From Patescibacteria group bacterium (GTDB lineage: Bacteria; Patescibacteriota; Patescibacteriia; UBA9934), in the NCBI GenBank assembly GCA_018062825.1, contig JAGORL010000004.1, forward strand, positions 7,409 to 71,408: a DNA stretch of 64,000 bases, read 5' to 3'. The position numbers and the translations under genes are program-made. Positions 1,712 through 61,440 of the stretch are shown here, piece by piece. Position 1 is the stretch's first letter. Every line of letters starts with the position of its first letter. Below the pieces are notes generated by a model that searched no databases, was not told the origin of the DNA, and saw nothing but the letters and a program-made list of their open reading frames with translations.

Positions 1712-2293
1712 CTAGCGCCAGCCGACACGTTCGGCAAAGTCGCTAGAAAGGAACGAGACCTCGGGGAACTCAGTGCGTAGCTTGTCGAGGCGCTTTACAC
1801 GCTCGAGCTGCTTAGCGCCAAGGCACGTGAGTGCGAAGACCTCATTGAGGAGCAGGATGAACATCGCTACTCCCTCATCTGACTCGTCCTGACGCACCGG
1901 ACGCAAGATCGAGACGTAGGTGAAAATCTTGAACGTGACTGTGAGCCACGTATCAAAGCTCAGCTCCTGACGAATCACCTGCGGCGCCCAATCGTACGGG
2001 CGCGCGAGTCCATCACGCAGCTGCTCACCGGAGATGTCCGGCGCGCACAGGACGTCGAGCATCCTGCCAATCGCCTGGGCGTACCACAGCGCCATACGAT
2101 GATCCACATAGCGCTTGTTTGCCACGTGCTCACGTATACGAGCTAGGAAGAGCCCCTCGACTCCTGGCCACGGATGCAAGAGCATCCGGATCTGCCGTTC
2201 ACGCCCTAACTTCGGCGTGAACTTAGGGTCTGTCTTGTCCTCATCGGGCGGCACATCGTGCCGGCCGCCTGGAATCAGGTCGAACTTCAGCAT
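1712..2293 (-). CDS. hypothetical protein, high-GC gene A (likely horizontally acquired); ATG start at 2293 rather than the TTG-extended 2305
   Basis: 193-aa ORF whose GC is visibly higher than its flanks (runs such as cggcgcgcacaggacgtcgagcatcctgccaatcgcctgggcg). ATG at complement 2291-2293 is preceded by GGAGG (ttggaggctttcATG) and promoter module A. No family recognised. Confidence 0.6.
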   Translation of the reverse strand: MLKFDLIPGGRHDVPPDEDKTDPKFTPKLGRERQIRMLLHPWPGVEGLFLARIREHVANKRYVDHRMALWYAQAIGRMLDVLCAPDISGEQLRDGLARPYDWAPQVIRQELSFDTWLTVTFKIFTYVSILRPVRQDESDEGVAMFILLLNEVFALTCLGAKQLERVKRLDKLRTEFPEVSFLSSDFAERVGWR

Positions 2294-2317
2294 GAAAGCC
2301 TCCAATTTGGTTGGCTG

Positions 2318-2346
2318 ATATTAGCAGAAAAAAGCGTTTTTGTCAA
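2318..2346 (-). promoter_or_regulatory. sigma70-type promoter, module A: TTGACA-N17-TAATAT with T-rich spacer AAAACGCTTTTTTCTGC
   Basis: Minus-strand read: ttgacaaaaacgcttttttctgctaatatcagccaaccaaattggaggctttcATG. It is nearly identical to the modules upstream of the genes at 13900, 3923-4681 and 51500. Confidence 0.55.
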
Positions 2347-3878: not shown

Positions 3879-3910
3879 AGGCCCACACGCGTTACGTGTG
3901 GGCCTTTGAG
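3879..3910 (-). terminator. GC-rich intrinsic terminator of high-GC gene B
   Basis: Perfect stem GGCCCACACG / CGTGTGGGCC with a 5-nt loop. On the minus strand it is followed by UCUUCUUUU. Its GC-rich composition suggests it travels with gene B. Confidence 0.5.
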
Positions 3911-3922
3911 TCACGGGTCACG

Positions 3923-4681
3923 TCAGCCGACACTCGGCGAACGACCCCACGTGTGCTCCGGGAAGCGATCGTAGTAACGCGTCATGAACGTGTACCAACA
4001 AGCATCGAGCGCGGTTGGCGTCGGACAGACGCACAGCATGCAGAAGAGCGGCACGACCGCGCTGATGGCGCGATAGCTCTTCGAGCCGCTGTCGATCCCG
4101 GCGAGGCTCGCCTTGTTGCGCAGAAGCGCCTGGAGATCGATCACGAACTGGTACCGATCCACAGTGACGACCCCAGGAGTTCCGAGGCGCCGGTGCTTGT
4201 CCTCCCGATCCCAGATCGTCATCGTCTCACAGACGATGGGCGTGATCTTGCGATCGCCACTCGCCTCGAGCGCTGCGTAGAACGCCATCGCGAGCTTCTC
4301 GTGCATGTCATGCACGATCGAGTGCGGCTCGCTGTCGCCATCGATGTTCAGCATCGCCGGATCGAAGAGCACGCTCTGCACGAGGCGTGCCATCGCGACC
4401 GCATTCTCGCCAAGAAGAGGGGTCACGATCTCCTTCGCGAACTTCGGGAAGTGCTGGAGAGCACCCCGGATCTCCTTCGGCCCTTCACGGACCAAAGGCT
4501 GCGTGCTTCCCCGTACCGCGGGAAGCTGCGAGCCCCTCGGCTTCGCGGACAGCTCGATGAGCTGTCCCCGGCCCGGATGATCCACCCTGGCCTTCACGAG
4601 GTGCAGAGGAACGTGCCGCTGCGGAAACGGCAATACGTTGTCGAGGCCATCGGCCTCATCTTGGCAACTGTCATTATTCAA
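3923..4681 (-). CDS. hypothetical protein, high-GC gene B (likely horizontally acquired), TTG start
   Basis: 252-aa balanced-composition ORF. The opposite-strand ORF 3896..4726 is Arg-rich antisense noise. The TTG start (complement of 4679-4681) lies 4 nt after AGGAGG. No in-frame ATG occurs until far downstream. No family recognised. A weak H-x3-HD (HSIVHD) motif is noted. Confidence 0.55.
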   Translation of the reverse strand: MNNDSCQDEADGLDNVLPFPQRHVPLHLVKARVDHPGRGQLIELSAKPRGSQLPAVRGSTQPLVREGPKEIRGALQHFPKFAKEIVTPLLGENAVAMARLVQSVLFDPAMLNIDGDSEPHSIVHDMHEKLAMAFYAALEASGDRKITPIVCETMTIWDREDKHRRLGTPGVVTVDRYQFVIDLQALLRNKASLAGIDSGSKSYRAISAVVPLFCMLCVCPTPTALDACWYTFMTRYYDRFPEHTWGRSPSVG

Positions 4682-4719
4682 GGTGCCTCCTTTGCCCCAT
4701 CACGGGGCACTCGTGGCGA

Positions 4720-4748
4720 ACAATAGCAAAAAAATGCAATTTTGTCAA
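4720..4748 (-). promoter_or_regulatory. sigma70-type promoter, module B: TTGACA-N17-TATTGT with spacer AAATTGCATTTTTTTGC, then a CCCC/GGGG hairpin in the 5'UTR
   Basis: Minus-strand read: ttgacaaaattgcatttttttgctattgttcgccacgagtgccccgtgatggggcaaaggaggcaccTTG. Confidence 0.5.
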
Positions 4749-4760
4749 TCAAAAACAGCC

Positions 4761-4838
4761 AATATTAGCGAAAAGCACAAATTAAATAGCAAATATTTGT
4801 TATCCACACAAGCCGCAAATATTAGCGAAAAAAGGCGT
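4761..4838 (-). repeat. two orphan partial copies of the promoter module (T-tract plus GCTAATATT -10 part, no good -35)
   Basis: Plus strand 4761-4775 aatattagcgaaaag and 4818-4838 aaatattagcgaaaaaaggcg. Their reverse complements, cttttcgctaatatt and cgccttttttcgctaatattt, match the TTTTTTCTGCTAATAT core of modules A and E. Confidence 0.45.
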
Positions 4839-8727: not shown

Positions 8728-8917
8728 ACAATGGAAATAAAAATAGCCGAATACCCCTCCATGGGGATTCGGCCGGGCTCCAAAACAACGTTCGGAGGGT
8801 TCCACCCGGGTTGTAATAGGGATGTCTCCCCTATCACCACTCAATGACACCTAATAAACAAGTAGGTGCGACCTGTTCGCTCCTGGGGCGGTACTCCCAT
8901 TCATCGCGAATATTTGT
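8728..8917 (-). promoter_or_regulatory. T-box-like leader RNA of thrS (stem III, antiterminator with UGGAACC bulge, intrinsic terminator)
   Basis: Minus-strand RNA: ..AUAGGGgagacaUCCCUAU uacaa CCCGGG UGGAACC CUCC gaacguuguuuu GGAG CCCGG ccgaaucccc.., giving helix A1, the 7-nt bulge UGGNACC and helix A2. Then comes hairpin GCCGAAUCCCC-AUGGA-GGGGUAUUCGGC followed by UAUUUUUAUUU, about 8 nt before the ATG. A Thr codon candidate ACC/ACU lies in GCACCUACUUG. Confidence 0.5.
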
Positions 8918-8945: not shown

Positions 8946-9017
8946 AACATTGACAAAACAGCAAAAATGTGATATGATTCTTCTTGTACCCAAAAAATGT
9001 TATTAGGCTAACATTAA

Positions 9018-9048
9018 ACAAAAAATCGGCTTTTCAGCCGGTTTTTTG
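9018..9048 (-). terminator. intrinsic terminator after gene 9049-10227
   Basis: aaaaaaTCGGCTtttcAGCCGGttttttg. On the minus strand it reads CCGGCUgaaaAGCCGA followed by UUUUUU, immediately after the stop. Confidence 0.55.
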
Positions 9049-13779: not shown

Positions 13780-13840
13780 ACAATGTCAGGCCACCCTATC
13801 AAAACCCCATCTTTCTCACGAGTGGATAACATGTGCAAAC

Positions 13841-13869
13841 TTTACCTTTCATAAAAGCTTTGCTAATAT
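13841..13869 (+). promoter_or_regulatory. promoter module C: weak -35 TTTACC, N17, TAATAT, then GCTAATATCCGCCAA...GGAGGCT UTR homologous to module A
   Basis: tttacctttcataaaagctttgctaatatccgccaagttcttcggaacatggaggctacATG, compared with module A ..ctgctaatatcagccaaccaaattggaggctttcATG. Confidence 0.45.
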
Positions 13870-13899
13870 CCGCCAAGTTCTTCGGAACATGGAGGCTAC

Positions 13900-14502
13900 A
13901 TGCTTAGGACCGTTCTCGTCGACCTCGATGACGTCGTCGCCGACTGGCGGGGACAGGTGATTCGAGACGCACAGAAGATCCTCGGGGACTCAAACGTGTT
14001 CATTCACGGACGAGACTACGAGGTCTGGGACATGATCAGTGAGTACCGCAAGGGATTCGGCGAGGAGGCGGTGCAGGCGATCCTGCAAGCAATCAATGCC
14101 CCCGGCTTCCACGAATCCCTGCCGCCGATCGAAGGAGCGATGGACGCACTGCAGCAACTCGATCACGACGGCTTCGACGCCTACATCGTCACCTGGCCGT
14201 GGCTTGGTCACCGGTCATGTGCCGGTGAGAAGCTCAACTGGGTTCGCGACAAGCTCGGCAGCTACTGGGAAAGGCGCACGATCATCAGCGCCAACAAGGT
14301 GCTCGTGCGCGGTGATCTGCTCATCGACGACCGACCAGATGCCGCGAAGCACGGCAACGGTCACGATCCGTCGTGGCAACACATCTTGTTCACGAACGAA
14401 GACTGGCCGTTCCGCCCGCACCTGAGCGACCACCCCGCCACGCACCGCATGCACGGCTGGGCAGAACTCCCCCGCATTCTGCAGGAACACAAACTCCTGT
14501 AG
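13900..14502 (+). CDS. 5'(3')-deoxyribonucleotidase-like HAD hydrolase (NT5C family), high-GC gene C (likely horizontally acquired)
   Basis: N-terminal HAD motif I VLVDLDDVVADW and NT5C-like length (200 aa). About 62% GC with GC-rich third positions (GTC/GAC/CTC/GCC codons). The overlapping ORFs in other frames are artefacts of the GC richness. Confidence 0.7.
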   Translation: MLRTVLVDLDDVVADWRGQVIRDAQKILGDSNVFIHGRDYEVWDMISEYRKGFGEEAVQAILQAINAPGFHESLPPIEGAMDALQQLDHDGFDAYIVTWPWLGHRSCAGEKLNWVRDKLGSYWERRTIISANKVLVRGDLLIDDRPDAAKHGNGHDPSWQHILFTNEDWPFRPHLSDHPATHRMHGWAELPRILQEHKLL

Positions 14503-14507
14503 CAAAA

Positions 14508-14547
14508 ACCCCGACATCCTCGCTAGGATCGTCGGGGTTCTTCTTAT
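14508..14547 (+). terminator. GC-rich intrinsic terminator of gene C
   Basis: CCCCGACATCCTcgcTAGGATCGTCGGGG long hairpin followed by ttcttcttatctc. Confidence 0.55.
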
Positions 14548-14596
14548 CTCACCTCACTTCACCACTTTACTCTTTTAACGTTACTCTTTAATCTCC

Positions 14597-25433: not shown

Positions 25434-25465
25434 GAACAGGTCATTATTCGTGCTAAAATACTAGC

Positions 25466-26272
25466 ATGGTAACGACTGCGTCACAGCCATCTTTTTCTCC
25501 ATCTGCCGCGCGGGCCGACCTGCGCTCTGCTCGAATTGCCGGACTGCGCAATCAAGCAACAACGCCACAAGGTGCACAAGCTATCAATGCAGATACCTGG
25601 ACGCCAGATAAAGATCAGCGTCGACTAAGGCAACTAACCCAAGGCCTCTCACTCCCCGCTTCACTTTCTCAAGCAATCCAAGAAGCGGAATCAGCTCTAC
25701 CGGAAGAAAGTCAAAACGAACGCGAGTTCGAGCGCTCACGCCTCCTCTCGCGCCAACAGGGGCAATCAAACGCTCAATCGCTTGCGAGCGGACTTGCTAA
25801 TCGCAGCCTTGATACTGCGCGCAGTAAGCTCAAAGGTATGGCTAGCGCGAAAAAAGATGCGCTGCAAAAAGAAGCGATGGAAAAAATGAAAAAGCTCGCT
25901 TTAGAGAAAACAAGTCGCTGGGGTGCAAAGCTTGGCGGTCACGGATTAAACGCTATCGACATTTTCGGTGAAGACGCTTGGTTTACCTACGTCGTGACCT
26001 ACATCTACGACTGGTGTCGCGCTGTAGTTACTATTCTTGTTCCTGAGCCAACAAATGAGGCTGACCAGTTAATGGCCGCCGGCAGCAAAGGCATTCGCTT
26101 CTTCATTCCACCGTATCGCCTCACAGAGCCGGGCGATCTCCTCTATTTTATCGGTGAGTTCATCATCACCATGCTCATTCTCGTGCTCATTATCGCTGTC
26201 CTCGCCGCTATCTACGTTATCTTCACTGATCCGCTCGAACTTCTTACCCTAGCGGCTGGTGCAATTTTCTAA
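25466..26272 (+). CDS. hypothetical protein with C-terminal membrane anchor
   Basis: 268 aa with a low-complexity N-terminus and a C-terminal hydrophobic tail IITMLILVLIIAVLAAIYVIF. Confidence 0.4.
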   Translation: MVTTASQPSFSPSAARADLRSARIAGLRNQATTPQGAQAINADTWTPDKDQRRLRQLTQGLSLPASLSQAIQEAESALPEESQNEREFERSRLLSRQQGQSNAQSLASGLANRSLDTARSKLKGMASAKKDALQKEAMEKMKKLALEKTSRWGAKLGGHGLNAIDIFGEDAWFTYVVTYIYDWCRAVVTILVPEPTNEADQLMAAGSKGIRFFIPPYRLTEPGDLLYFIGEFIITMLILVLIIAVLAAIYVIFTDPLELLTLAAGAIF

Positions 26273-39790: not shown

Positions 39791-40201
39791 TTATCGACAA
39801 GCTCCACAAAAGCCGTAATAAACAAGCGCGTGAGTAATGTGAGTAAATCCGGACTTTTTAGCAACCAGCGCTTCACGTTTTTCAAAATCTTCATCATCCG
39901 CTTCAAGTTCTGCCACAACGCCACAATTCCGACACACGGCATGGTGATGATGATCATCACTAAGCTCATATCGCAGCACCCCATCAAGAAGTCGAATCTC
40001 TTCAATAAATCCCTCACCCACAAAAGTGGCGACATCTCGATACAACGTTGTTTTATGAGGCGTGACCCCCTTTTGCGTCATACGATCCAAAAGTTCAGGA
40101 ACGCCAAGCGGCCCCTGCGCCGCCTCAAGAACAGCACACAGCGCCTTGCGCGACGCTGTTATGCGAAATCCTCGCTTACGAAGTGTATCGATAAGTTGCA
40201 T
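39791..40201 (-). CDS. zur: Fur family transcriptional regulator (probable Zur)
   Basis: Winged-helix N-terminus, HHHH metal site and CxxC..CxxC (CRNCG...CGAC). It sits upstream of znuACB with a palindromic box in its promoter. Confidence 0.8.
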   Translation of the reverse strand: MQLIDTLRKRGFRITASRKALCAVLEAAQGPLGVPELLDRMTQKGVTPHKTTLYRDVATFVGEGFIEEIRLLDGVLRYELSDDHHHHAVCRNCGVVAELEADDEDFEKREALVAKKSGFTHITHALVYYGFCGACR

Positions 40202-40214
40202 ATACAAAAACAAT

Positions 40215-40233
40215 AATGCAACCAAGTTGCATT
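40215..40233. promoter_or_regulatory. candidate Zur/Fur box: 19-bp palindrome AATGCAAC-CAA-GTTGCATT lying in the spacer of the zur promoter (TTGACA-N17-TATTGT)
   Basis: Minus-strand read cATTGACAatgcaacttggttgcatTATTGTttttgtatATG. Confidence 0.55.
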
Positions 40234-41468: not shown

Positions 41469-43409
41469 TTAACTCTTCTTCGCTTCCCCGCCCTCTTTAC
41501 CAACATTCGACAGAGCTCGCTGATACTCTTCACGAGCACGCTCCTGCTCCAAAAGCTGCTGAGGATTGGTAGTAATAATCTGATCCTCTGTATATGAAGC
41601 CACAACCTTCAAAGCGGCATGCTTCTGACCAGCGAAGAAGATTCCCTCACCAAGCGCCGCTTCAAGTAAGAGGTACTTCTCGCTTTGCGTTAAATTGAAG
41701 GTCTTGGAAACAAGCTCAACGCCCGCTGGCGATTGCTTAAGAAGAATCTGCATGGACGAGTTAGTCACAATCGCCTGCCCGTACTGCGATGTCAAAAAGT
41801 CATTAACGTCTTGAGTAATGGTGGTAACACCAAGATAGTACTTACGCGCACGCTTCACAAGCGCAAAGATAAACTTGGCTGAATCCTCATTTTGCATGAG
41901 CCACCAAGCCTCATCAATAACCAAAATACGCTTCTTACGCTCAGAACGAACGACATTCCAGATATAGTTAACGATCGTATAGATCGCCATTGGTCGTAAT
42001 TCATCTTCAAGGTCACGTACTGAAAAAATAACCAGCTGATTGCGCATCTCAACGGTGGTCGGCGAGTTCAACAATCCCGAGAACGTTCCAGTAACAAATT
42101 TCTGCAAACGAGCAACAAGATTGTCAGCCCCATCCATGCCCTCCAAAACATCCAAAAGATCGTTCAAGATTGGATAGTCAGTAATGCTCGAAAGGTTTGG
42201 CAAGTCCGGCGTAATATCTTTCTTAGCATACGCCTCAAGAAGCGCTCGATCCAAAATACTATCTTCTTCAGGTGTAAAACCAAGCGTTCCCTTTTCGCCC
42301 ATCGGCTTACCGATCATGATACGCAGCAATCCCTTCAGGGTAATAACCGCGCTACGTAAAATATCTTCAACCGATGACTCTTCACCCTTTGGTCGAGGCA
42401 GATCAAACGGATTCACCTTAGCCTCAGAAGCCAAAGAGACGTTAATAAACGTGCCACCGACCGCATCAGCCAGCTGGCGATACTCCATTTCCGGGTCGAT
42501 CGCGATGACATCCGTACCCATCATCATGGAACGCAGAATCTCAAGCTTGATGGTGTAACTCTTACCAGCACCGGAAGTAGCAAAAATAACTGAATTCGCA
42601 TTCTGCAAAGAAAAGCGATCAAACAAGATAAGCGAATTATTATGACGGTTGATGCCGTACAAAATACCGTTATCACTCGTAACATCACTTGAAGTAAATG
42701 GAAACGACGACGCAATCGGCGACGTGTTCATGTTAAACGAGATGAGAAGCTCGTCGTTGCAAAGTGGCAGCGTAGAGTTAAAACCCTGCTCTGTCTGATA
42801 AAAACCACGCTTCGTGTAAATAAGCTTCGTCGCAAAAATCGACTCAATCTCCTCTGTGCGTTTATCAAGCTGTTCTTTGCTGGTAGCGTACAGCGTGACG
42901 TAAAAACAAAATTGAAAGAAATGCTCAATACCTTGAGTAAGATCGTCACGCAATTGTTCAACATCGCGAAGCGCCGTTTCCCGAATCGGATCACGCGGTT
43001 TACCGGATTCATTATCGGAAATGATCTGCGCCTCTAAAATACCGGTCTTATCACGTAGCTGTTTCAAAATAACTTCCGATTTAATCGGATAAAAGAACAT
43101 GCCGATATCAATCGTTCCTTTAAAGTTGATAATTGGCGACCCCCAACCGATGCCCACATATCGAGGATACGTCGTAACAAAAAGCGTACGAGCAAAGCGA
43201 TCATTAAGCTTCAAGAACGTTGGATCAACCGCAAAAGATGATGGCGCAATCAAATCACGAACCGAAACCGTACCGCGACGATAAACGCGCTCTTCTTCAA
43301 GCGTTGCCCGCTCCTGGATCTTCTTCTGATCCTGAGTAGACATGGGACGTGCCTTCATGGCATCACGCGCCGACTGCTGTTTCTTGAGGTCTTCAATGTT
43401 AAATGCCAT
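41469..43409 (-). CDS. VirB4/TrbE-family type IV secretion ATPase, C-terminal two-thirds (ATG at 43409; track TTG start 43430)
   Basis: Conserved VirB4 middle region ..RDLIAPSSFAVDPTFLKLNDRFARTLFVTTYP.., Walker A SGAGKSYT and Walker B-region ILVIDEAWWL. Confidence 0.85.
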   Translation of the reverse strand: MAFNIEDLKKQQSARDAMKARPMSTQDQKKIQERATLEEERVYRRGTVSVRDLIAPSSFAVDPTFLKLNDRFARTLFVTTYPRYVGIGWGSPIINFKGTIDIGMFFYPIKSEVILKQLRDKTGILEAQIISDNESGKPRDPIRETALRDVEQLRDDLTQGIEHFFQFCFYVTLYATSKEQLDKRTEEIESIFATKLIYTKRGFYQTEQGFNSTLPLCNDELLISFNMNTSPIASSFPFTSSDVTSDNGILYGINRHNNSLILFDRFSLQNANSVIFATSGAGKSYTIKLEILRSMMMGTDVIAIDPEMEYRQLADAVGGTFINVSLASEAKVNPFDLPRPKGEESSVEDILRSAVITLKGLLRIMIGKPMGEKGTLGFTPEEDSILDRALLEAYAKKDITPDLPNLSSITDYPILNDLLDVLEGMDGADNLVARLQKFVTGTFSGLLNSPTTVEMRNQLVIFSVRDLEDELRPMAIYTIVNYIWNVVRSERKKRILVIDEAWWLMQNEDSAKFIFALVKRARKYYLGVTTITQDVNDFLTSQYGQAIVTNSSMQILLKQSPAGVELVSKTFNLTQSEKYLLLEAALGEGIFFAGQKHAALKVVASYTEDQIITTNPQQLLEQERAREEYQRALSNVGKEGGEAKKS

Positions 43410-43413
43410 ACGC

Positions 43414-52434: not shown

Positions 52435-55400
52435 CTACTCACGCGAAACCGTAATCACGCCATCGTAATACACCCAAGGAGAAATGATCCCATCGTAGTC
52501 TGAATATTCATCGTAAGAACATTCAGCGGTAGAATCCGAAGGACTTAATAAGCTATTTCCACCACCATCAAAACATCCCTCTCGCCCATCGAGACCTGGA
52601 TCGCAACTACCCGTACACCATCCCCAGTTATCACGCACGTGAACTCGAGGCTGGAAGGTACACTGCGCATCAAGACCAGGATTTGTCACACATGGGCTAG
52701 CGTCCAAGATACCGTCACCGTCATCATCTGAACAAACCGGCGCAGTCTGAATGATGTCAGACGTACAGGTATAGATGTGATTGTACGATAGATAGTTTGG
52801 ATCACAGCTCTCATCAGTGAGGCCCCATTCGCTAGCAAGGTCACAGCGGCTAACGGTTGTATTGTTCTGCAAACCACGGTGGTTCTTGTAGAAGTTGTCA
52901 TCGGCATCCGAACCGCTTTCAATGCCATCACCCCAATCAATGATAATACGACGAAGTGGCAATTGATTCTTATCTGCTGCCGCATAGAACTTCAGGTTGG
53001 CGCGGTAGAACTTGATAGCCGAGATATTTCCGCCATCCTGGGTATTGATGGTAAAGGCATTCTCTTGATTCTCAGCACACTCCGTACCAGAACAGTTGTT
53101 CATGTCGAGTGACCAGATCTTGGGAGGAACACCTGAAGTACCACGAATGTCCCAGTCGAGCCCAACATCTGAAGGCTCCTCAACACCATCCTCATAGGAA
53201 CCAAGCGCCTCACCTCCAATGTCGCTTACGGTGAAGTTCGTATCACCGATAACCCAGCTAATTAATCCGGCCGGCTTAGCAAAAAGCTGCTGCAAACGAC
53301 CAATGATATCAGATGCATCTTCCGAGGTAGCCACATCTTCAGAGAATGAACCGAGTGAGTCCCAGGCAAGGAATGGCTTAGCCTGCGAAGACCCTGCACT
53401 GGCGAAAGCTGGCTCAAAATCACCACCCCAGAACGAACAATCTTCTGGGTTGTCAGCATCAGGTACTGGCAACAGGGCTCTCGTTTGAGGTGTGGAATTT
53501 GGATTTGCACATGCTGGAATGACAGCCGGTGTTGGATCTTCCAGATCATTGAATCCACTATTTAAGGTCGGGACAGTAATAGTGCCAGCCCACGGAGTAT
53601 TAATCGTTGCATACTCGTAAACATAGTCGCCAACGGTAATTTGCGATAACGAAGTGCTTTCAGGGTTCAAGACCCGATCTGTCCAAGCATAATTCTGCAC
53701 ATCCGCAACATCAGCCGAGCTACCGAGAATTAAATTCTCACAGGCAGGGTATGTTTCCCAATCCGGTCGCTGCACCGAAGATATATGGAAATCATCACCA
53801 TTAGGATCAAAGCCCTCATTAGAGCCACCATCAGCTAAATCTATAGCCATCGGCCAGGCAAAGAACCCGAGTTCATCCTCAACTACAGAAGAGCCGTAAT
53901 ACGTACAATCTAGATAATTATCCATCAAGATTTGAGCATTATCGTAACCAGCTTCATCTGAAGCAGAAAGGAAGAAATACTCAGTGCGTTCCTCAAAAAG
54001 ACCATTACCAGACGTGACGGAAAAACCAAGATCTTCTTCAGACGGCGTTTCACAAGCGTCCCCATTAGCATGAAACGAATTGTACGGAACACAAACGTAA
54101 GGACAAGCATTAACGGCATCCGTACAAGCTTCAGCGAATGAATTTGTATCCGTACCACCGTTATTCTTAGCTCGTCCACCCACTGCCCAGAATCCCTCAG
54201 GGCATGAAATAGTATGACGACAGTCATCCGATCTCTCAGTATTGATGCTTGCAGGCCTACTCGGAGCATTTAACGGATCTTCGCCGAGACTTTCAGCACA
54301 CGCCGTATAGGAATCAATATTGGCATAACCCCGAATCTCACCACAGTAGTTCAAATCACTAGCAACACCAGCGGTGGTGTACTTAGCAAACAAGTTCGTC
54401 TGACCAGCTAGCTGATCAACCGGTAGCCAAGTAACACAAGCCTGCTCATCACGATCACCATTTATATTGATTGCGCTATCACGCTCCAAACAGTAACCAG
54501 TGATGCCGTACAAATCATCAGCCCGAACAACTGGCTGACAAACGCCACCGCCTGTCTCACAATCACCTTCAGAAATAGCGCTCGAATCCGTAGAGCCAAA
54601 TGAACAGTAAACGTTATCAAACTCACCACCGGAACAAAGACCGATATTTGAGTCAGGGAAACGAGACTCAGTTGAGTAATAACGACTATCCCCTCCCTGC
54701 TGTCCATAACTGACCTTAGTGTAGGAACACAGACATTCCTCACCAGGCGCACACGTATTCACCTGATCAAAACCAGCACGCGTGCTGTACACCGTAGCAT
54801 CAAGGGTTTCGTTATCAATCTCCTCAATAGTGTTCTTAGCCTCTGGATCGTACCAACGCTCAACAACATCAGTAGAGAATGGACTTGTCTTCTCAGGATA
54901 GAGTCGGCACTCAGCAGCCTCAGCAGTTGCGGTATCAAAGGTATTACCATCTGGAGTCAACAAACAACGCTCGTTCAAACAAGTTCCAACCTTGAGCTGA
55001 ATATCTTCAATGAATGATTCGCCAGAACCACAGGAGAGTGTTGGATTGCTTGGTACAAAACTTTCAACCGTCACCGTAGCGCCCGGAGTAGCACATGAAC
55101 CAGCTAAACAGATATCACCCTCGTCACAATCAGCATCAGCGGCACAGAAGTCTGCGGTATCAATGTCGTAACAACCTCCAACAACGCACGTATCCCCTGA
55201 TCCACAGGATGCAGAAGAAGAACAAGCAGCGCCGCTCGTCTCACACACACCAACGCTACAGCTTTCACCAAAGTAGAAACCGTCATTCTCTTCACAGCTA
55301 CCGGCATCAAGCGCTAAACGATAGTCCGGCTTAATGCCTTCAGGAGCACAGTGATTATTCGATGACCCTGCGAATGTTCCAGTGATACCACAATCCGAAT

Positions 55401-58400
55401 CAACTATACACGTGTCACCCTGATTATCATTAAAGACCGTTTGCGTAATATCACCATTAGCAAGCGCTGCTCGCAAATCACACGTCAAAGGCTCTGGGGC
55501 AATATTCGCCTGGGTAAGCGCCTGTACTGGGTACAGGTCAGGAATCGCCATACCAGAATATTCATCGCCGTACCAAGAAACATCACGAGAGGTGTAGCGC
55601 TCTACATCAAGAACGATTTCTGGATCTTCAAAGTTCCAATCATCACAGAATGAAGCGTCACCAAGTGCCGTGTAACCACTACACAATTCAACATCAGAAC
55701 ACACCGTCTTGAATGTTGCGGAGTTCTCATCCCAAACGGTTTCGTAGTTTGCACAAGTTAACCACTCAGAACACTGACGATCACGGTTCACCTTCAAAAG
55801 CGTATTTGTATCGTTTTCAAGGCGATCAACCGGAGCATTCTGAACTCCAAGAGCCGGCGGCGTAACTCGAATCTCAGTCGTACAATCGTACGCCTTAATC
55901 ATTTCACCTGTTTCACTCTCAAGTGGTGAACAGTCACTCACCGAGTAACAAGACGTACCAAGAATCGCTACATCAGAAGCCTCGGTATAAAGACCGCTAT
56001 TACCAGCAGATGTTTCCTGGCTCATCTTCGCAACACGTCCAACGCCATCGGTAATATCAAGCACCTGACCTCGGTCGTACACACAGCGCTGAGCACAAAG
56101 GTCGATCGTTTCCCCACCAACTGTTACCACCTGGGTATTAGAAGCATCACAGTTAATTGGATCAACAAGGGAGTACGGCGCCTGACCAAAGATGACATCC
56201 GCATTCTTGCTTGCCGCCTCGGTGGCAGAAGCGTTGTACAAACGTGAAGACGTACCAGTGTCTAAGAACAAGGCACAGCCCTCCTTCAAAGAGGCTTGAC
56301 CATCGCAACGCTGGCTCGCTGGCAACACGTTCTCATCAAGATTGTCGTTATTCAAGAAAACGTAACTCTCACCATCAGCGTCTGAATACACCTCGTCAGA
56401 ATCAACATCTAATGGATCAAAGTACTCTGTACAGGTGCTGTACTCAGGCTCACACATACCTGCCCAGCCACCAAACTGAGCATCACCATTGCGCCACAAA
56501 CCGGACAATTCCCCGCCTACTAAGTAAGAGGGATCCTGGGTGTTACATGTATCAGCCGCGCCACCCGTACAATCCGCGGTTGAAGAACAGGCATTGCCGC
56601 CAATAGTACATGTGCCGTAACAGAATGAATCAGAACCTTCACGGAACCAACCATCATACGAACTACCAAGAATAGTGACGTCCGTACGGTACTCACAACG
56701 CTGACCTAATGGATTTTTGAAATAATACGTGGTATTCGCGTCATCAGACCAAGCCTCACAGAAAAGCTCATCCTGTTCACAAAGAACCTCATCAAATGTA
56801 TCAGGATCAATCGTGCGATAAACGCTGGCAGCTCCAAGTGTGCTGTTGCGATCCTGAGAGAAAGTCGGAAGACCGATCTCGGTACAACCAGCAGCACCCG
56901 TTGCGCAAGTAACGTCATCCGTTACTACCAGGAAGGCGTCCGTATCAGCCAAAGCTACCTGAGTAGAAGAAGCAAAGGTCAGATGCGCTGTTGATCCCGT
57001 GCTAAGAAGCGAAGTGGATGTATAACCATCGTAATCAAAGGTACAGAAACTAGTACCAACACCGATCGTACACAAGTACTGACTAGTGGTGTCATAAACT
57101 GCACCATTTGATTCGTAGTAACAGGAAGTAGCGGAGGTAGCCGGCAAACCATTTAACGTATTACAACGCAAATTGTGTACCGAAGCATACGGATCCTCGC
57201 TCTCCTGCGTCATGAAAAACGCATCACAACCAACAACGTCATCGGAACAGAGCTTACTAAACGACTTCAAGTAAACCGTTTCATCCTCATGCGTGGAATA
57301 CTCCTGACAACCCAAGTAATACTGCGAGCTAGCAGCGCCCGTTGGCGACTGATCACAAATTGCTGGCGTTGACCAAGAGCCACGAATCAAAGCGAGATTG
57401 TCCTCACCCTCACGAACAGTAAGGTTGTCGATATATGCGGTAGCACTTGGGTCAAAGACAAGAGCCGTACCGGTACCAAAGGCTGCAAAGTCAGCGGCAT
57501 TAAGGTTAGCGGTATCCATCGGGCCAGCGCTAATCTCAGTCCAACCATCTGTGAGCGTAAATGTTCCAAGATCAATATCAATAGCTGTTGAACCATTTGC
57601 TGGCGACAGATCAAAACCAACGCGCACGGTACCCGTACCCTTTGCTAAGAAGCTAATGGTATACGTCTTACCGGAGAACAGTTCATCACTAATCGTTCCA
57701 CAATAGGTCTCGCCCTCAGAAACCACACAAGATCCACCCAAAGGAGATGCCACGGAAGAACATCCGCCATCAGTCGTACAGGTAGAACCGGTGGAATACG
57801 TGTGGGTACGAACAACGTCAGTGAAAACCATGCTCTGACCACCGGTAGCAAGCGATTCGCTACTCAAACTTGCAAATGAAGCGGAAGATGCCTCAAAGGC
57901 ACTCACCGTTCCGTCTTCAAAATTCTCACTAAAGGCGACACGCGAGTTGCGACCACGACCACCCGTATAAGAACGACAACCGTTATCATTATCAGAACAC
58001 TCATCACTCTCCTCTGCTAGCCCAAGGTATCGGCAAGTACCAAGTACCGAATCAAAGTAACCGCCAGACGACTCACAAGAAAGTTCACGCTGTGCGCTTG
58101 TAGCTCCTGCAATATCCGTCTTGCGATAAGCCTGACAAGCTACATCAACAGAGACGGTTTTGCTCCACAATCGATAATGAATACCTCCAGCAGCATCATA
58201 AAACTCACGGCAATCTGGATTGGTGTAAATATCAGCGTTCTCGTCACACGCTGAAGTATCCCAGTCGTAAATACCGTTACCATCTAAATCGATCGCATCA
58301 GAACAGGTCACCCCGTCATCCGTAGCATTCCAGTTAGAACACGGCGCTGCTCCCGGATCTGTATCAGTGCCACCACTAGCGCCATAAGAGTAATCTGCGC

Positions 58401-61400
58401 CACTCAAGCCAGATTCAAGCAAATTCCACTCACGCAATTGGTAACCAGAGGAGTCTGAGCCCTCCCAGGTATAGAAAACCGCTCCCTGATCGCCACCAAT
58501 ATTTGCCGCTGCTTGCTCTGGAGTAACGCAAGATCGAAGGTAAGTGTAATACTCCAACTCTTCAGTCGCAAGATTGGTAAACTCAGAACAGCCAACAGCA
58601 TCTTCTGAACAGGTTTCAGCGGTTGTTGGAATGAAATAAAGCGGGAACTCCCCATCCGGTTCGTAACGAGTTGGTTCTTGCTTATACGTATCGTAACCAG
58701 AACAAATAGACGGACAAGAATCAAGCTCATTGGCAACGCCCGTGATCGTTGGATTGCCATTTGTTGGGCTATACGCCGTACAGCCAACATCATTCTCAGA
58801 ACAAACTTGCGCATACGCTACACACGCCTCAGGATCAGTTGCTGCGCCAGTACAACCTAAATAACTCGGAGCAACCTTGGCAACAACCGTATCAAGTGAC
58901 GCGCTGCTGTAACCAACGGCAAACGTCGAGGCATCTTCACCCTGCTCAACCTGCACGTCATCAATATAGAGATCACCGATAAACTGAATCTCAGCCGTTA
59001 AACGATCCGCAGGATCAGCAAGGACTGGTGCGGTAAAGGTACAAGAAAACCGTTCATAACCAGTTGAGGTCGGAGAGCCACCAAAGCTGACCGTTTCATC
59101 ACCTCCACTTGCGTCATTATCAGCAAAAGAACAATTAGCGCCAGCGCTTGTTCCAGCTAGATCAATAGTAGATCCGGAATCAGAGGTAAAAACAATCGAC
59201 ATCTTAGCTGAAGCACTACCAGTGCTCACTTTTTGACGAGCATAGAAGGATGCTGAGTAGAACGTGCCCTGAGAAAAGGTAACGCCCGGCTGATAAACAG
59301 AACCGGTCGCCGGATTAACGCCAGCCAAGCCGGAACGAGCAAAGACACCCGTCGTATCAGTAACAACCGCCGCGGAAGAAACCATCCAACCATCCGCAAC
59401 GTCATCATTATTTGCATCATCCTCTAAACCTGGATTCTTCAAGATATTCAGGCGTAAATCTGAAGAACGACGTACTAGTTCTCGGCAACCGCCATCTTCT
59501 TCATCACACTCCTCAGCAGCAGATGTAAGGTAGATGCGATCGTCATAAACCTCAGTTGTACTCTCGGTTACCGCTAAATTAGTAACGGCTGGCCAGGCAA
59601 AAGACCCATCTCCTTGAACAACTTTTTGCGTGTCATACCACAAACAACCGGCATTACCTTCAGTACAAGGACCAGGATCAACGGAGTTACGAAGTAAAGA
59701 AATATCTTCACCCTGAGAATCTTCAAGTGTTAAACACGATGCGTACTGTTCAGGGCAGGAATCGCCACGGAAACTCCAGGCATTCTCTTCTCGGACACAA
59801 TAACCAAAGCCACCGATACAATTACCGTTCTCATCCTCATAAATACAACTCGGCATGTCGACACACTCCTCAGAACGAGCATTCGTGCCACTAACCGCCA
59901 AAAGCTGACCGTTACCCTGCATGCGACACTGTGTTTCTGGATATTTCAAAACCCAAGACGGATCAATGAGCTTACACCATGGGTGGTTAGCATCACGCTC
60001 CCCTGCTGTATTACAGTCGTCAAAACCATTAACTACCTGTTGAAGAGTTGGCGCAGTGCCGCTTGTAGCACTCTCAGCAGCCAATTCCCAACCAATAGGA
60101 AGCACACGAGCCTTGCGAAGTTTTACAAGGTTAGTATGACAATAACCGTAGGTATAACAATACGGATCTTGGTTACGAGCCACATCCTGTGAGCCAATAA
60201 GCGGGAATGATCCACGCAAAAGACCCTCTTCAATCGCCTCCTCAACAGTAATCGGCACCCCAGACGCCGCGCGTGCAACAGCGGACAAAAATGACGCATC
60301 CATGACACAGTTATACAAACCGCGATTCGTTGCCGATGGACAGGCAGCAAACTCAGAAAGAATGCTAAAGTTATCAATCTGCGTAGGAGCAGCTGCTAAA
60401 AACGAGCGGTAGGAAGCACGCGCTCCGTCAGCGTTCGATGAATTGATGGAAGCAATATCACCAAATGGATCAGGGATATCCATGTCAAACTTGAAAAGAC
60501 CCTGATAAATTTTCTGAGTAAGCTCAGAAAGAAGCGTGTTGGTAAAAACGGAAGCCGTATGAATACCAACACCTAAAAGCACATCCTGATCACCAAGTGC
60601 ACTAATTGCGAAATTCTTCTTAGTTTCACCCGGCTCATTAAGCTTATTGGCAAGGTCGTCAGCTAAGATATTTGCCGGAGTCTCAACGTTACCCGTAATG
60701 ACGTTCGTAAGATCCTTAAAACCGTTATTCTTAATATGAGCAACCGTCTCGATCTTTGCCTTCTCCAAAGCGTCAGCAATGGCATCATGCTGAATAGTGA
60801 CACCAACCTGAAACTCGTTAACAGTTGGATCATACGCATTTGCCAACTGTGTCAAAATCGTACGATTCTTCAAAAGATTTCCCTCTTCACTTGAAACGTC
60901 AGCAATAAAGCTATCCCAATTTTCAACAATCTCGTTAAATTCACACTGTGGCTCAGGGCGATCAAAAACACCCTGAATACCAAACATGATGGAAAGTCCA
61001 ACGTTAAAACGAGGTGCACACAAATTAAAATCCCCAAGAACGCCACCAAAGCCAGAACTTGCCGCTAACTCTGCCTGAAGTGAACCTACAGCCTCGCCAG
61101 CAACAGCCTGAGCATAATCAGTCCAGTAGTTTCCACCATCTCGACCATCAAAAAGCGGCTCATCCGCAGGACCACCCGCAGCAATAAAAACTGCGGCGTC
61201 GTATGCCAAACGATCAAGCGCAAAAGTAACCGTGTTCATCAAAATCTGAGCAATCGCAATCGATCGAACCTGTTTAGCCGTTAGTTCCGCAGTCTCAATA
61301 GCATCCTCCAAAGCACGAGGAGCATCAGTCAAGGTATTAGCTCCTACAACAAGCTGAGCAGAAGCAATAGTTGGCAGGAAAAAGCTCGTAAAGAGCGCCA

Positions 61401-61440
61401 ATCCTATACTTGCTCGTAAAAATCGATTGATAACACCCAT
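52435..61440 (-). CDS. giant (3001 aa) secreted Cys/Asp/Gly/Thr/Ser-rich surface protein of the secretion locus
   Basis: Single uninterrupted 9-kb ORF with backbone-like composition. N-terminal signal peptide (..LPTIASA-QLVVG). Dozens of Cys and many D-x-D/G-rich segments suggest an extracellular disulfide or calcium-stabilised repeat architecture. Confidence 0.8.
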   Translation of the reverse strand: MGVINRFLRASIGLALFTSFFLPTIASAQLVVGANTLTDAPRALEDAIETAELTAKQVRSIAIAQILMNTVTFALDRLAYDAAVFIAAGGPADEPLFDGRDGGNYWTDYAQAVAGEAVGSLQAELAASSGFGGVLGDFNLCAPRFNVGLSIMFGIQGVFDRPEPQCEFNEIVENWDSFIADVSSEEGNLLKNRTILTQLANAYDPTVNEFQVGVTIQHDAIADALEKAKIETVAHIKNNGFKDLTNVITGNVETPANILADDLANKLNEPGETKKNFAISALGDQDVLLGVGIHTASVFTNTLLSELTQKIYQGLFKFDMDIPDPFGDIASINSSNADGARASYRSFLAAAPTQIDNFSILSEFAACPSATNRGLYNCVMDASFLSAVARAASGVPITVEEAIEEGLLRGSFPLIGSQDVARNQDPYCYTYGYCHTNLVKLRKARVLPIGWELAAESATSGTAPTLQQVVNGFDDCNTAGERDANHPWCKLIDPSWVLKYPETQCRMQGNGQLLAVSGTNARSEECVDMPSCIYEDENGNCIGGFGYCVREENAWSFRGDSCPEQYASCLTLEDSQGEDISLLRNSVDPGPCTEGNAGCLWYDTQKVVQGDGSFAWPAVTNLAVTESTTEVYDDRIYLTSAAEECDEEDGGCRELVRRSSDLRLNILKNPGLEDDANNDDVADGWMVSSAAVVTDTTGVFARSGLAGVNPATGSVYQPGVTFSQGTFYSASFYARQKVSTGSASAKMSIVFTSDSGSTIDLAGTSAGANCSFADNDASGGDETVSFGGSPTSTGYERFSCTFTAPVLADPADRLTAEIQFIGDLYIDDVQVEQGEDASTFAVGYSSASLDTVVAKVAPSYLGCTGAATDPEACVAYAQVCSENDVGCTAYSPTNGNPTITGVANELDSCPSICSGYDTYKQEPTRYEPDGEFPLYFIPTTAETCSEDAVGCSEFTNLATEELEYYTYLRSCVTPEQAAANIGGDQGAVFYTWEGSDSSGYQLREWNLLESGLSGADYSYGASGGTDTDPGAAPCSNWNATDDGVTCSDAIDLDGNGIYDWDTSACDENADIYTNPDCREFYDAAGGIHYRLWSKTVSVDVACQAYRKTDIAGATSAQRELSCESSGGYFDSVLGTCRYLGLAEESDECSDNDNGCRSYTGGRGRNSRVAFSENFEDGTVSAFEASSASFASLSSESLATGGQSMVFTDVVRTHTYSTGSTCTTDGGCSSVASPLGGSCVVSEGETYCGTISDELFSGKTYTISFLAKGTGTVRVGFDLSPANGSTAIDIDLGTFTLTDGWTEISAGPMDTANLNAADFAAFGTGTALVFDPSATAYIDNLTVREGEDNLALIRGSWSTPAICDQSPTGAASSQYYLGCQEYSTHEDETVYLKSFSKLCSDDVVGCDAFFMTQESEDPYASVHNLRCNTLNGLPATSATSCYYESNGAVYDTTSQYLCTIGVGTSFCTFDYDGYTSTSLLSTGSTAHLTFASSTQVALADTDAFLVVTDDVTCATGAAGCTEIGLPTFSQDRNSTLGAASVYRTIDPDTFDEVLCEQDELFCEAWSDDANTTYYFKNPLGQRCEYRTDVTILGSSYDGWFREGSDSFCYGTCTIGGNACSSTADCTGGAADTCNTQDPSYLVGGELSGLWRNGDAQFGGWAGMCEPEYSTCTEYFDPLDVDSDEVYSDADGESYVFLNNDNLDENVLPASQRCDGQASLKEGCALFLDTGTSSRLYNASATEAASKNADVIFGQAPYSLVDPINCDASNTQVVTVGGETIDLCAQRCVYDRGQVLDITDGVGRVAKMSQETSAGNSGLYTEASDVAILGTSCYSVSDCSPLESETGEMIKAYDCTTEIRVTPPALGVQNAPVDRLENDTNTLLKVNRDRQCSEWLTCANYETVWDENSATFKTVCSDVELCSGYTALGDASFCDDWNFEDPEIVLDVERYTSRDVSWYGDEYSGMAIPDLYPVQALTQANIAPEPLTCDLRAALANGDITQTVFNDNQGDTCIVDSDCGITGTFAGSSNNHCAPEGIKPDYRLALDAGSCEENDGFYFGESCSVGVCETSGAACSSSASCGSGDTCVVGGCYDIDTADFCAADADCDEGDICLAGSCATPGATVTVESFVPSNPTLSCGSGESFIEDIQLKVGTCLNERCLLTPDGNTFDTATAEAAECRLYPEKTSPFSTDVVERWYDPEAKNTIEEIDNETLDATVYSTRAGFDQVNTCAPGEECLCSYTKVSYGQQGGDSRYYSTESRFPDSNIGLCSGGEFDNVYCSFGSTDSSAISEGDCETGGGVCQPVVRADDLYGITGYCLERDSAININGDRDEQACVTWLPVDQLAGQTNLFAKYTTAGVASDLNYCGEIRGYANIDSYTACAESLGEDPLNAPSRPASINTERSDDCRHTISCPEGFWAVGGRAKNNGGTDTNSFAEACTDAVNACPYVCVPYNSFHANGDACETPSEEDLGFSVTSGNGLFEERTEYFFLSASDEAGYDNAQILMDNYLDCTYYGSSVVEDELGFFAWPMAIDLADGGSNEGFDPNGDDFHISSVQRPDWETYPACENLILGSSADVADVQNYAWTDRVLNPESTSLSQITVGDYVYEYATINTPWAGTITVPTLNSGFNDLEDPTPAVIPACANPNSTPQTRALLPVPDADNPEDCSFWGGDFEPAFASAGSSQAKPFLAWDSLGSFSEDVATSEDASDIIGRLQQLFAKPAGLISWVIGDTNFTVSDIGGEALGSYEDGVEEPSDVGLDWDIRGTSGVPPKIWSLDMNNCSGTECAENQENAFTINTQDGGNISAIKFYRANLKFYAAADKNQLPLRRIIIDWGDGIESGSDADDNFYKNHRGLQNNTTVSRCDLASEWGLTDESCDPNYLSYNHIYTCTSDIIQTAPVCSDDDGDGILDASPCVTNPGLDAQCTFQPRVHVRDNWGWCTGSCDPGLDGREGCFDGGGNSLLSPSDSTAECSYDEYSDYDGIISPWVYYDGVITVSRE

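Follow-up and report, generated by a model that had tools for sequence, protein, structure and literature searches.

Promoter and Shine-Dalgarno signals shared by unrelated GC-rich genes in a Patescibacteria genome: probably a lineage consensus and not copies of one segment

In a 64-kb stretch of DNA from a Patescibacteria group bacterium (the window), two GC-rich genes, A and C, are preceded by near-identical promoter and 5' untranslated region (5'UTR) sequences. Does this likeness mark a portable expression module fused to imported open reading frames (ORFs), as a reading of the sequence alone had proposed (the sequence-only reading), or does it reflect an ordinary consensus of the lineage? 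Our analysis favors the second answer. The kits of promoter and ribosome-binding site (RBS) ahead of A and C, and of two further GC-rich genes, B' and E, are probably the near-consensus signals of this Patescibacteria lineage and not recent copies of one segment.

Gene A (1712-2293, minus strand) encodes 193 aa, with a GC content of 0.59 and a GC content at third codon positions (GC3) of 0.73. Its upstream region reads TTGACA-AAAACGCTTTTTTCTGC-TAATAT-CAGCCAACCAAATT-GGAGG-CTTTC-ATG on the minus strand, with the ATG at 2293-2291. Positions 2294-2346 would form a complete, conventional expression signal, that is, a sigma-70/sigma-A-type promoter followed by an RBS. The candidate core promoter (2318-2346) combines a consensus -35 element TTGACA (2346-2341), a 17-nt spacer AAAACGCTTTTTTCTGC built of an A-tract, a G/C middle and a T-tract, and an extended -10 element TGC-TAATAT (2326-2318). 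The discriminator and short 5'UTR (CAGCCAACCAAATT; 2294-2317) include CAGCCAA (2317-2311) and a Shine-Dalgarno (SD) site, GGAGG (2303-2299). Transcription would probably start at the A's of CAGCCAA, about 7 nt past the -10, leaving a 5'UTR of about 20 nt with GGAGG 5 nt ahead of the ATG. This promoter gave the top score (31.9) in a position-weight scan of the window, and a consensus scan also listed it, with TG ahead of the -10.

Gene C (13900-14502, plus strand; GC 0.61, GC3 0.79) encodes an NT5C-family 5'(3')-deoxyribonucleotidase (Pfam E=3e-20), and its upstream region reads TTTACC-TTTCATAAAAGCTTTGC-TAATAT-CCGCCAAGTTCTTCGGAACAT-GGAGG-CTAC-ATG, with 4 nt between SD and ATG. The predicted core promoter (13841-13869) consists of TTTACC (13841-13846), a 17-nt spacer and the extended -10 TGC-TAATAT (TGCTAATAT, 13861-13869); CCGCCAA (13870-13876) and GGAGG (13891-13895) lie in the discriminator and 5'UTR (CCGCCAAGTTC...; 13870-13899). 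Both genes carry TGCTAATAT-C[A/C]GCCAA and GGAGGCT, and between -35 and -10 gene C shares with gene A only the extended -10, together with the bases just after it. The string GCTAATATCMGCCAA occurs exactly twice in the window, and 13 times with up to three mismatches (3.2 expected). The sequence-only reading was accurate in describing these paired signals as a promoter and 5'UTR, although the start it gave, 2291, is the last base of the ATG. It was also right that the two cargo genes are unrelated, gene A having no Pfam match and gene C belonging to the NT5C family.

The fuller likeness in the window involves other genes. Both B' and E have the whole -35-to-(-10) stretch of gene A, TTGACAAAA-N3-C-N-TTTTT-N-TGCTA. 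The gene E promoter (TTGACAAAATCACTTTTTTCTGCTAATGT; 51355-51383, plus strand; TTGACA-17-TAATGT; score 31.7) is 27/29 identical to that of gene A, and the gene B' promoter (TTGACAAAATTGCATTTTTTTGCTATTGT; 4720-4748, minus strand; TTGACA-17-TATTGT; score 30.3) is likewise listed, with TG, by the consensus scan. Chance resemblance was rejected, the 29-nt pattern TTGACAAAANNNCNTTTTTNTGCTANTNT having three matches in the window against 0 expected. When both strands were scanned, A, E and B' scored 30-32, an orphan site at 8950 scored 22 and all other sites scored at most 12, inside the range of shuffled controls; the three best matches thus all lie upstream of GC-rich genes. All four promoters, including the TTTACC-17-TAATAT of gene C, have a -35 element, a 17-nt spacer that runs from an A-tract through a short middle with G/C to a T-tract, and TGC directly ahead of TAnnnT. 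Their -10 elements sit 24-116 nt upstream of the start codons and are oriented toward the downstream gene. B', C and E would accordingly carry the same kit as A, and a fifth GC-rich gene, D, the same SD.

If these kits were copies of one segment, sequence outside the functional elements might be shared as well. Similarity ends at the -35 and shortly past the -10; A, B' and E are related in neither their upstream flanks nor their transcribed parts, and no terminal inverted repeats or target duplications were found around these three genes. The 5'UTRs of the kit genes vary widely in length (about 20, 30, 45 and 115 nt).

Comparison with other species points to the same answer. The sister species (L169) has the same gene order, A and B' included, with core proteins 90-96% and fast-evolving neighbors 61-68% identical. 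Identity reaches 92% in the A/g2370 and 90% in the B'/g4870 intergenic region, against 47-68% for flanking proteins and 33-54% for four-fold degenerate sites of flanking genes in the same comparison. The gene A promoter is identical but for two mid-spacer bases, and its 5'UTR differs at one UTR base and at four bases between SD and ATG; the gene B' promoter differs at mid-spacer bases only, and its 5'UTR by a single change (C to A in TCGCCAC). The mid-spacer differences are CGC against TGG and TTGCA against GTCAA. The gene E promoter is kept in L166, where the orthologous copy lies at the edge of the locus, and the gene C promoter is partly kept in L123, where the orthologous site reads TGTACA-17-TAACCT and retains TTGCTAA, as well as GCCA[A/C]GTTCT and GGAGGCT in the 5'UTR. 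Across these three relatives the orthologous promoters keep the -35, the tracts, the TG and the -10, and the mid-spacer varies. Because A, B', C and E are dissimilar at just those positions that vary between orthologues (mid-spacer and SD-to-start), the likeness of the four appears to stem from a shared consensus and not from recent copying. They are best read as several promoters held near one tight consensus. Related genomes share its family-level form, TGCTAAYnT followed by nAGCCA standing ahead of unrelated GC-rich genes in L129, L133, L134 and L123.

The alternative offered by the sequence-only reading is a discrete portable promoter module, a segment copied within the genome and fused ahead of incoming ORFs, either by promoter propagation or as a small repeat with an outward-facing promoter. 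The 27/29 identity of A and E ahead of unrelated ORFs would suit such a module, as would a promoter in the related genome L129 (TTGACAAAAACGTTTTTTTCTGCTAACTT) that is 26/29 identical to that of gene A at a site whose neighboring proteins are not detectably homologous to those of the gene A locus (E=0.027 and 0.66). Family members also favor C as base 19 of the spacer and A as the third base of the -10, although most sites of the broad set have other bases there. A T-tract with (C)GCTAATATT forms three tandem copies upstream of B' (4727-4838, minus strand), of which only the proximal one has a -35; the two extra copies (4750-4838) have no recognizable -35, and all three are kept in the sister species. 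Against the module stand the unrelated flanks beyond the functional promoter edges, the dissimilar UTR lengths, the missing terminal repeats and target duplications, and the fact that the paralogous copies differ exactly where orthologues vary freely. The same skeleton is, moreover, present at no fewer than 119 loci in other, unrelated genomes, and we regard a portable promoter segment as very improbable.

Those loci came from an exact search for the 20 specified bases of TTGACAAAANNNCNTTTTTNTGCTA, with one genome taken per species. The at least 119 loci fall mostly in Uhrbacteria, Magasanikbacteria, Saccharibacteria and other Patescibacteria, with a few in Clostridia, and many genomes have the skeleton twice. 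The sites are likely to be real promoters because the bases past TTGACAAAANNNCNTTTTTNTGCTA, which the search left unspecified, complete a -10 of the form TA(t)(a)nT, which ends in T at 118/121 sites among the matches listed. AAA past the -35, TTT ahead of the TG and the TG itself likewise appear at a further 77 sites of these loci that were chosen solely for the form TTGACA-N17-TAnnnT. The genes behind TTGACAAAANNNCNTTTTTNTGCTA sites are miscellaneous (DeoR regulators, glycosyltransferases, ribosomal protein S20, a sortase, a DinB-type polymerase). GC-rich ORFs behind the strict promoter mostly lack a Pfam domain, and an all-against-all BLASTP of 50 of them yielded only two weak pairs, on which we rejected shared cargo families; this comparison took the L129 stretch in a frame with stop codons and is therefore silent on gene A versus the L129 cargo. 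Loci with the strict promoter include Patescibacteria ones of 59-65% GC, and the skeleton has only 16 single matches among 2.9 million viral contigs.

The claim that the signals of A and C are too similar for independent evolution does not survive these comparisons, given the exact skeleton matches elsewhere, the like appearance of unbiased TTGACA-N17-TAnnnT sites, a four-part spacer layout already known from bacterial promoters (PMC12641261) and the variation of orthologues at the same positions. As to whether the motif is simply an ordinary consensus, it is that of the lineage, yet it does not stand upstream of most genes in the window. Nor do GC-rich genes in general have strong promoters to themselves, a possibility rejected on two results from the broad Patescibacteria set, in which about 11% of all genes are GC-rich: GC-rich genes have no higher generic sigma-70 scores than other first-in-unit genes, and the SD frequency of promoter-proximal ORFs shows no GC-dependent difference. 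Among the genomes returned by the skeleton search, many third-party bins labeled 'uncultured Gammaproteobacteria' (loci L002-L111, e.g. CAZKGL010000001.1 and OZ246400.1) are 0.7-0.9 Mb chromosomes, at least one with the Patescibacteria type-IV-secretion-like operon, and look mislabeled.

Could the shared bases instead be an operator? A dimeric regulator binding the near-palindrome GCTAAT/ATTAGC over the -10 of A and C (GCTAATAT(C/T)AGC), and also upstream of B' and D, would place the GC-rich genes under putative joint control. GCTAATATTAGC with up to two mismatches has 10 matches in the window against 2.2 expected, five of them upstream of A, B' (two), C and D, and the two extra sites upstream of B' are kept in the sister species despite having no -35; the two species are, however, too close for this conservation to weigh much. 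The palindrome halves coincide with the TGCTAAT of the extended -10 and with the frequent (T)AGCC discriminator of the lineage, and the sites keep a fixed promoter register. Gene C fits only 8/12 palindromic positions (hand count). The -10 of gene E (51376-51387, GCTAATGTTCGT) is four bases off GCTAATATTAGC, whose nearest match, at 51179, lies 176 nt upstream of the -35 of E. No candidate regulator lies beside any kit gene, the Fur-family gene at 39791-40225 heading a zinc-uptake operon. A regulon of this kind seems highly doubtful.

What sets the kit genes apart within the window is their composition together with their RBSs. The five GC-rich genes (A, B', C, D and E) have GC 0.57-0.65 and GC3 0.64-0.90, most others lying near 0.48 and 0.43. 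GGAGG occurs 3-5 nt ahead of the start in 6/47 window genes, namely these five (spacings of 5, 4, 4, 4 and 4 nt from A to E) and the gene at 44588-46315, and the count is still 6/47 when alternative in-frame starts are allowed; the presence of all five GC-rich genes among the six has a hypergeometric p of about 4e-6 (hand calculation). The association with compositionally atypical genes that the sequence-only reading anticipated is thus borne out in the window, both by the three top promoter matches and by the GGAGG sites. In related loci, 22% of the GC-rich genes but about 6% of the normal ones have GGAGG, and clear TTGAC-type promoters, ThrRS/LemA excepted, nearly all precede a GC-rich, SD-led ORF.

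Terminator hairpins lie 3' of A, B', C and D, and a weaker one 3' of E. That of gene A (1674-1704) is bidirectional, with a 12-bp stem containing 8 G-C pairs, and serves the convergent gene 744-1667 as well; those of B' and D map to 3905-3879 and 49248-49219, and that of C is described below. Each GC-rich gene is predicted to form its own transcription unit, with the normal-GC core genes arranged in long operons. Most core genes have no SD motif of any kind, and two look leaderless, with TGCTATAAT 10 nt ahead of the ATG at 2370 (2350-2372) and TGCTAAAAT 6 nt ahead of the ATG at 25466 (25451-25468). If the lineage-consensus account is correct, RNA polymerase and the ribosome would use the kit sites in the conventional way, and GC-rich messages may need a strong SD, since the usual SD-independent initiation of the host would depend on unstructured, A/T-rich leaders. 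The units themselves may have been acquired horizontally, possibly as whole promoter-ORF units.

This last point is best examined at gene C. The order PGM-RseP-PheS-PheT-g14597-[gap]-DnaE-g9049-ThrRS is kept in about 20 related metagenome loci, and the g14597-dnaE gap (window 13780-14596) is empty, at about 90 nt, in four of them (L135, L136, L138 and L141). Elsewhere the gap holds cargo that is GC-rich throughout: a phosphoribosyltransferase in L139, an OMP-decarboxylase-family protein in L149, ORFs without any Pfam match in L130, L134 and L137, and NT5C in the window and its closest relatives. The dnaE-side gap is an insertion hot spot, and its cargo is repeatedly a nucleotide-metabolism enzyme. 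In the window, an imperfect 22-nt direct repeat has its left copy at 13801-13822 (plus strand) and its right copy, 73% identical, at 14505-14526, where it forms the 5' arm of the two-way terminator 3' of gene C (14504-14542). This is the only flanking direct repeat found, and it encloses the gene C promoter and ORF, not the promoter alone. It is clearer in L123 (about 415-440 and 1125-1144), where about 17/22 bases match by hand count, and may represent either the scar of an insertion or a duplicated attachment site. Because the repeat brackets promoter and NT5C together, it suggests that the gene C unit was inserted along with its promoter. The nearest outside relative of the NT5C protein has 40% identity and is encoded on a 66%-GC phage-like contig resembling a jumbo phage. 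Separately, a 27-nt block between dnaE and the gene C promoter (ttctcacgagTGGATAAcatgtgcaaa; 13816-13842) is identical in L123 and L124 and includes a DnaA-box-like TGGATAA.

These observations bear on a second account, in which each GC-rich gene arrived as a ready transcription unit (promoter, SD, ORF and perhaps terminator) from another Patescibacterium or its mobile element, perhaps from a high-GC lineage whose promoters follow the same consensus; the module would then be portable only with its ORF, in the manner of a moron but on the chromosome. It is compatible with the lineage-consensus reading and, for the origin of gene C, is the most plausible explanation. The bracketing repeat, the dnaE-side site that is about 90 nt in some relatives and filled with unrelated GC-rich cargo in others, the jumbo-phage-like context of the NT5C relative, the strict promoter in 59-65%-GC Patescibacteria loci, the promoter and terminator belonging to each unit, and the mutually unrelated, mostly domain-less GC-rich ORFs behind such promoters all speak for it. 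As a general account it fares less well. No flanking repeats were seen at A, B' or E, nor around the cargo of L130, L134, L137, L139 and L149, no donor was identified, and the viral contigs yielded just the 16 single skeleton matches. Gene D, a member of a conserved Patescibacteria operon, is GC-enriched in 4/4 genomes. Import of all GC-rich genes as whole units is possible but rather unlikely in our judgment.

The gene content of the window is chromosomal, comprising DnaE, ThrRS, PheST, a ClpB-like protein, RadA, RecG, KsgA, the zinc-uptake operon with its Fur-family regulator and a type-IV-secretion-like operon. Pfam searches found no integrase, transposase or phage gene among the window genes, a further point against whole-unit import. 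A phage or plasmid origin of the window was rejected, there being no megablast match to phages, chromosomal genes throughout and a skeleton rare in viral contigs.

Composition argues in the same direction. Genes A, B', C and D were inherited vertically between sister species, and in comparisons with L169, L123 and L166 the GC content at their four-fold sites is 0.63-0.83 in both species, against 0.27-0.46 for neighbors, a pattern that misfits a relic drifting to host composition. These four-fold sites are just 33-57% identical between species, which is near saturation. Simple amelioration was rejected on a rough estimate: once about two thirds of the four-fold sites have been replaced, a decaying relic would no longer have a GC content of 0.71-0.83. 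The GC-richness of A, B', C and D is maintained and is no fading relic, and since it persists across near-saturated synonymous divergence, a simple recent import fails to explain it. The proposals of the sequence-only reading hold in part. At least gene C behaves as an insertion, one that seems to have come with its promoter, in a hot spot with variable cargo. No flanking homology, terminal repeat, integrase or transposase marks a promoter element as such, and to call the ORFs imported is too simple, given the vertical inheritance of A, B', C and D with maintained GC3 and the place of D in a conserved operon.

Several points weigh against attributing the kits to a lineage consensus. After TGCTA, genes A and C agree at 10 of 11 bases, and only 0.3% of independent promoter pairs from other genomes agree at that many or more in an empirical null, and GCC stands at the same offset in 3/4 promoters against 7% of the broad set. 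Taken as a single pair, A and C match more closely than expected by chance, but the excess is only borderline once the number of promoter pairs is considered; even so, a phylum-level consensus is not fully explanatory, which calls for a family-level consensus of a tighter kind or for a degree of common ancestry. Across other genomes, GC-rich ORFs stand behind 34% of strict promoters and behind 14% of other TTGAC-N18-TAnnnT sites (p=0.0016). This is an excess over what a wholly generic signal would give, in a comparison confounded by crude gene calls and by the single-gene nature of the units. Horizontal acquisition, which the account includes for these units, sits uneasily with GC3 kept over near-saturated synonymous divergence. 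Every promoter call is sequence-based, and it is solely conservation in orthologues that suggests the GGAGG sites are used. Part of the Parcubacteria lacks the anti-SD motif (PMC9297842), and an Rfam scan found no rRNA gene in the window.

A more speculative possibility, to which we give only tentative credence, is that in this family two gene classes, each with its own expression grammar, coexist in a single genome. One would be a core of about 43% GC3, packed into operons and SD-less or leaderless; the other would consist of accessory genes that are individually promoted, SD-led and rich in GC3 (65-90%). If so, genes of the second class would come and go at hot spots close to terminators, the dnaE side being one. 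Their GC3 would be kept high by GC-biased conversion, by recurrent exchange with a GC-rich pool, or by selection tied to mRNA structure or to translation from SD sites. On this view, promoter plus SD would mark out a cassette economy that is moron-like but chromosomal, in candidate-phyla bacteria.

The individual genes add further detail. Gene A has almost no relatives: a word-indexed protein search returned gene A alone, under a database entry reading 'Patescibacteria group bacterium', and an exhaustive HMMER search recovered one true homologue, P0111, in the sister species (62-65% identity), which rules out a complete orphan. A second candidate, P0112, was a spurious match to a translated tandem repeat. 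The public gene call for P0111 (157 aa; L169 10001-10474) is truncated at its 5' end and starts 36 codons late; an SD-preceded ATG at 9893 and a conserved N-terminal peptide indicate that the true ORF is the longer one.

Gene B' (3923-4681, minus strand; 252 aa, region GC 0.625) starts with TTG at 4681, and AGGAGG (4691-4686) lies 4 nt ahead of it in the predicted 5'UTR (TCGCCACGAGTGCCCCGTGATGGGGCAA; 4682-4719). Its protein had no match in a Pfam search and is 47% identical to the L169 counterpart (tblastn). A plus-strand ORF that overlaps it (3896-4726) is probably spurious. A perfect DnaA box (TTATCCACA; 4800-4808), kept in L169, lies between B' and gene 4870.

Gene E (51500-52246, plus strand) encodes a 248-aa predicted lipoprotein with a signal peptide (GC 0.65, GC3 0.90); together with its leader of about 115 nt it spans 51384-52246, with GGAGG at 51491-51495, 4 nt before the ATG at 51500. 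An RNA gene behind its promoter (51384 onward) was considered and rejected, as the region encodes the lipoprotein from an SD-preceded ATG; Rfam gave no match at the gathering threshold across the window, nor at E<=1 across 50800-51560.

Gene D (49253-50884, minus strand; GC 0.57) encodes an M23-peptidase lipoprotein, with GGAGG (50893-50889) 4 nt before the ATG at 50884, and leads a conserved Patescibacteria type-IV-secretion-like operon; one of the four genomes in which it is GC-enriched has 61% GC. Its promoter was not located, -10-like segments alone being seen at about 51179-51222 (minus strand). The leader is about 300 nt long and GC-rich (50885-51200, minus strand) and is kept in a relative with 80% protein identity (comparison sites: L166, about 180-677; L167, upstream of 8001); atcccctggggagtgg from this leader recurs in that of a distant homologue, and the leader matched no Rfam family at E<=1. 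The surrounding conserved Patescibacteria cluster (41469-50884 and 52435-61440; L166-L168) encodes an M23 peptidase, proteins of ~900 and ~575 aa, PrgI, a TraC-like protein and a VirB4-like ATPase. It adjoins a 3001-aa protein, with a small GC-rich gene on the opposite strand between them (E here, a 236-aa ORF in L168).

Two observations concern the ThrRS region. The orphan site noted above (8950-9040, plus strand), in the gap between ThrRS and the next gene, is a strong promoter of the form TTGACA-17-TATGAT with TG; a terminator follows about 60-80 nt downstream, and the promoter may drive a small RNA. On the minus strand, the ThrRS leader (8851-8917) carries a motif, ..ggactaccaa.ccgggagcg.. 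(here ..gggagtaccgccccaggagcgaac..), that is kept across related genomes (L133, L137 and L149) and matches no Rfam family at the gathering threshold.

The main value of the locus lies in the contrast between an SD-poor core and a few GC-rich accessory genes with consensus promoter, GGAGG and their own terminator. The kit marks distinct, individually expressed, GC3-rich accessory genes in a window that otherwise hardly uses SD sites; the idea of a portable module is only partly supported, nothing showing that the module moves in its own right. It could aid annotation of transcription units and true start codons in Patescibacteria, as it does in fixing the starts of A and B'. If genome-wide, it would let the flexible gene pool of these symbionts be recognized from sequence by a simple mark, and would offer a testable case for how foreign-looking genes stay GC-rich and expressed in a host with another initiation habit. 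The kit organization, the dnaE-side hot spot and the maintained GC3 are worth following.

Viewed against known systems, the motif combines known kinds of signal and calls for no new mechanism. With the sigma-70/sigma-A extended -10 promoters of Firmicutes and other Terrabacteria it shares TTGACA, the 17-nt spacer and TG two bases before TAnnnT. It differs from the usual sigma-70 form in that the -10 of this family is mostly TAAYnT, not TATAAT, often followed by nAGCC, and from the Firmicute TRTG in having C before the TG instead of a purine. A four-region promoter spacer layout has been reported across 49 bacteria (PMC12641261), and the spacers described here resemble it in their A/T tract by the -35, slightly G/C-enriched middle, A/T tract by the -10, and TG. 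The SD sites are likewise conventional, GGAGG (once AGGAGG) lying 4-5 nt before ATG or TTG and being kept in orthologues while the bases between SD and start change; what differs is their use by a small minority of genes (6/47 in the window, about 6% in related loci).

Putative mobile promoters, or promoter propagation, in prokaryotes place similar promoters ahead of non-homologous genes in one genome. Here the likeness covers about 29-45 nt at constrained positions only, and the skeleton spans the whole phylum. Integron cassettes are normally promoterless, end in attC, form same-orientation arrays, and need IntI and attI. The units in the window resemble them as small single-gene units of varied, often unknown function gathering at a preferred site, but they are scattered, have their own promoters, show no integrase or attC-like site, and end in ordinary T-tailed terminators. 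Phage morons are independent promoter-ORF-terminator units of deviant composition between phage genes. The units described here are flanked by core chromosomal genes (dnaE, pheT, thrS and the type-IV-secretion-like operon) in 64 kb free of phage genes, and are stable between species; they are nevertheless moron-like in being single ORFs of deviant composition with their own sigma-70 promoter and terminator, inserted between adjacent genes and variable in cargo.

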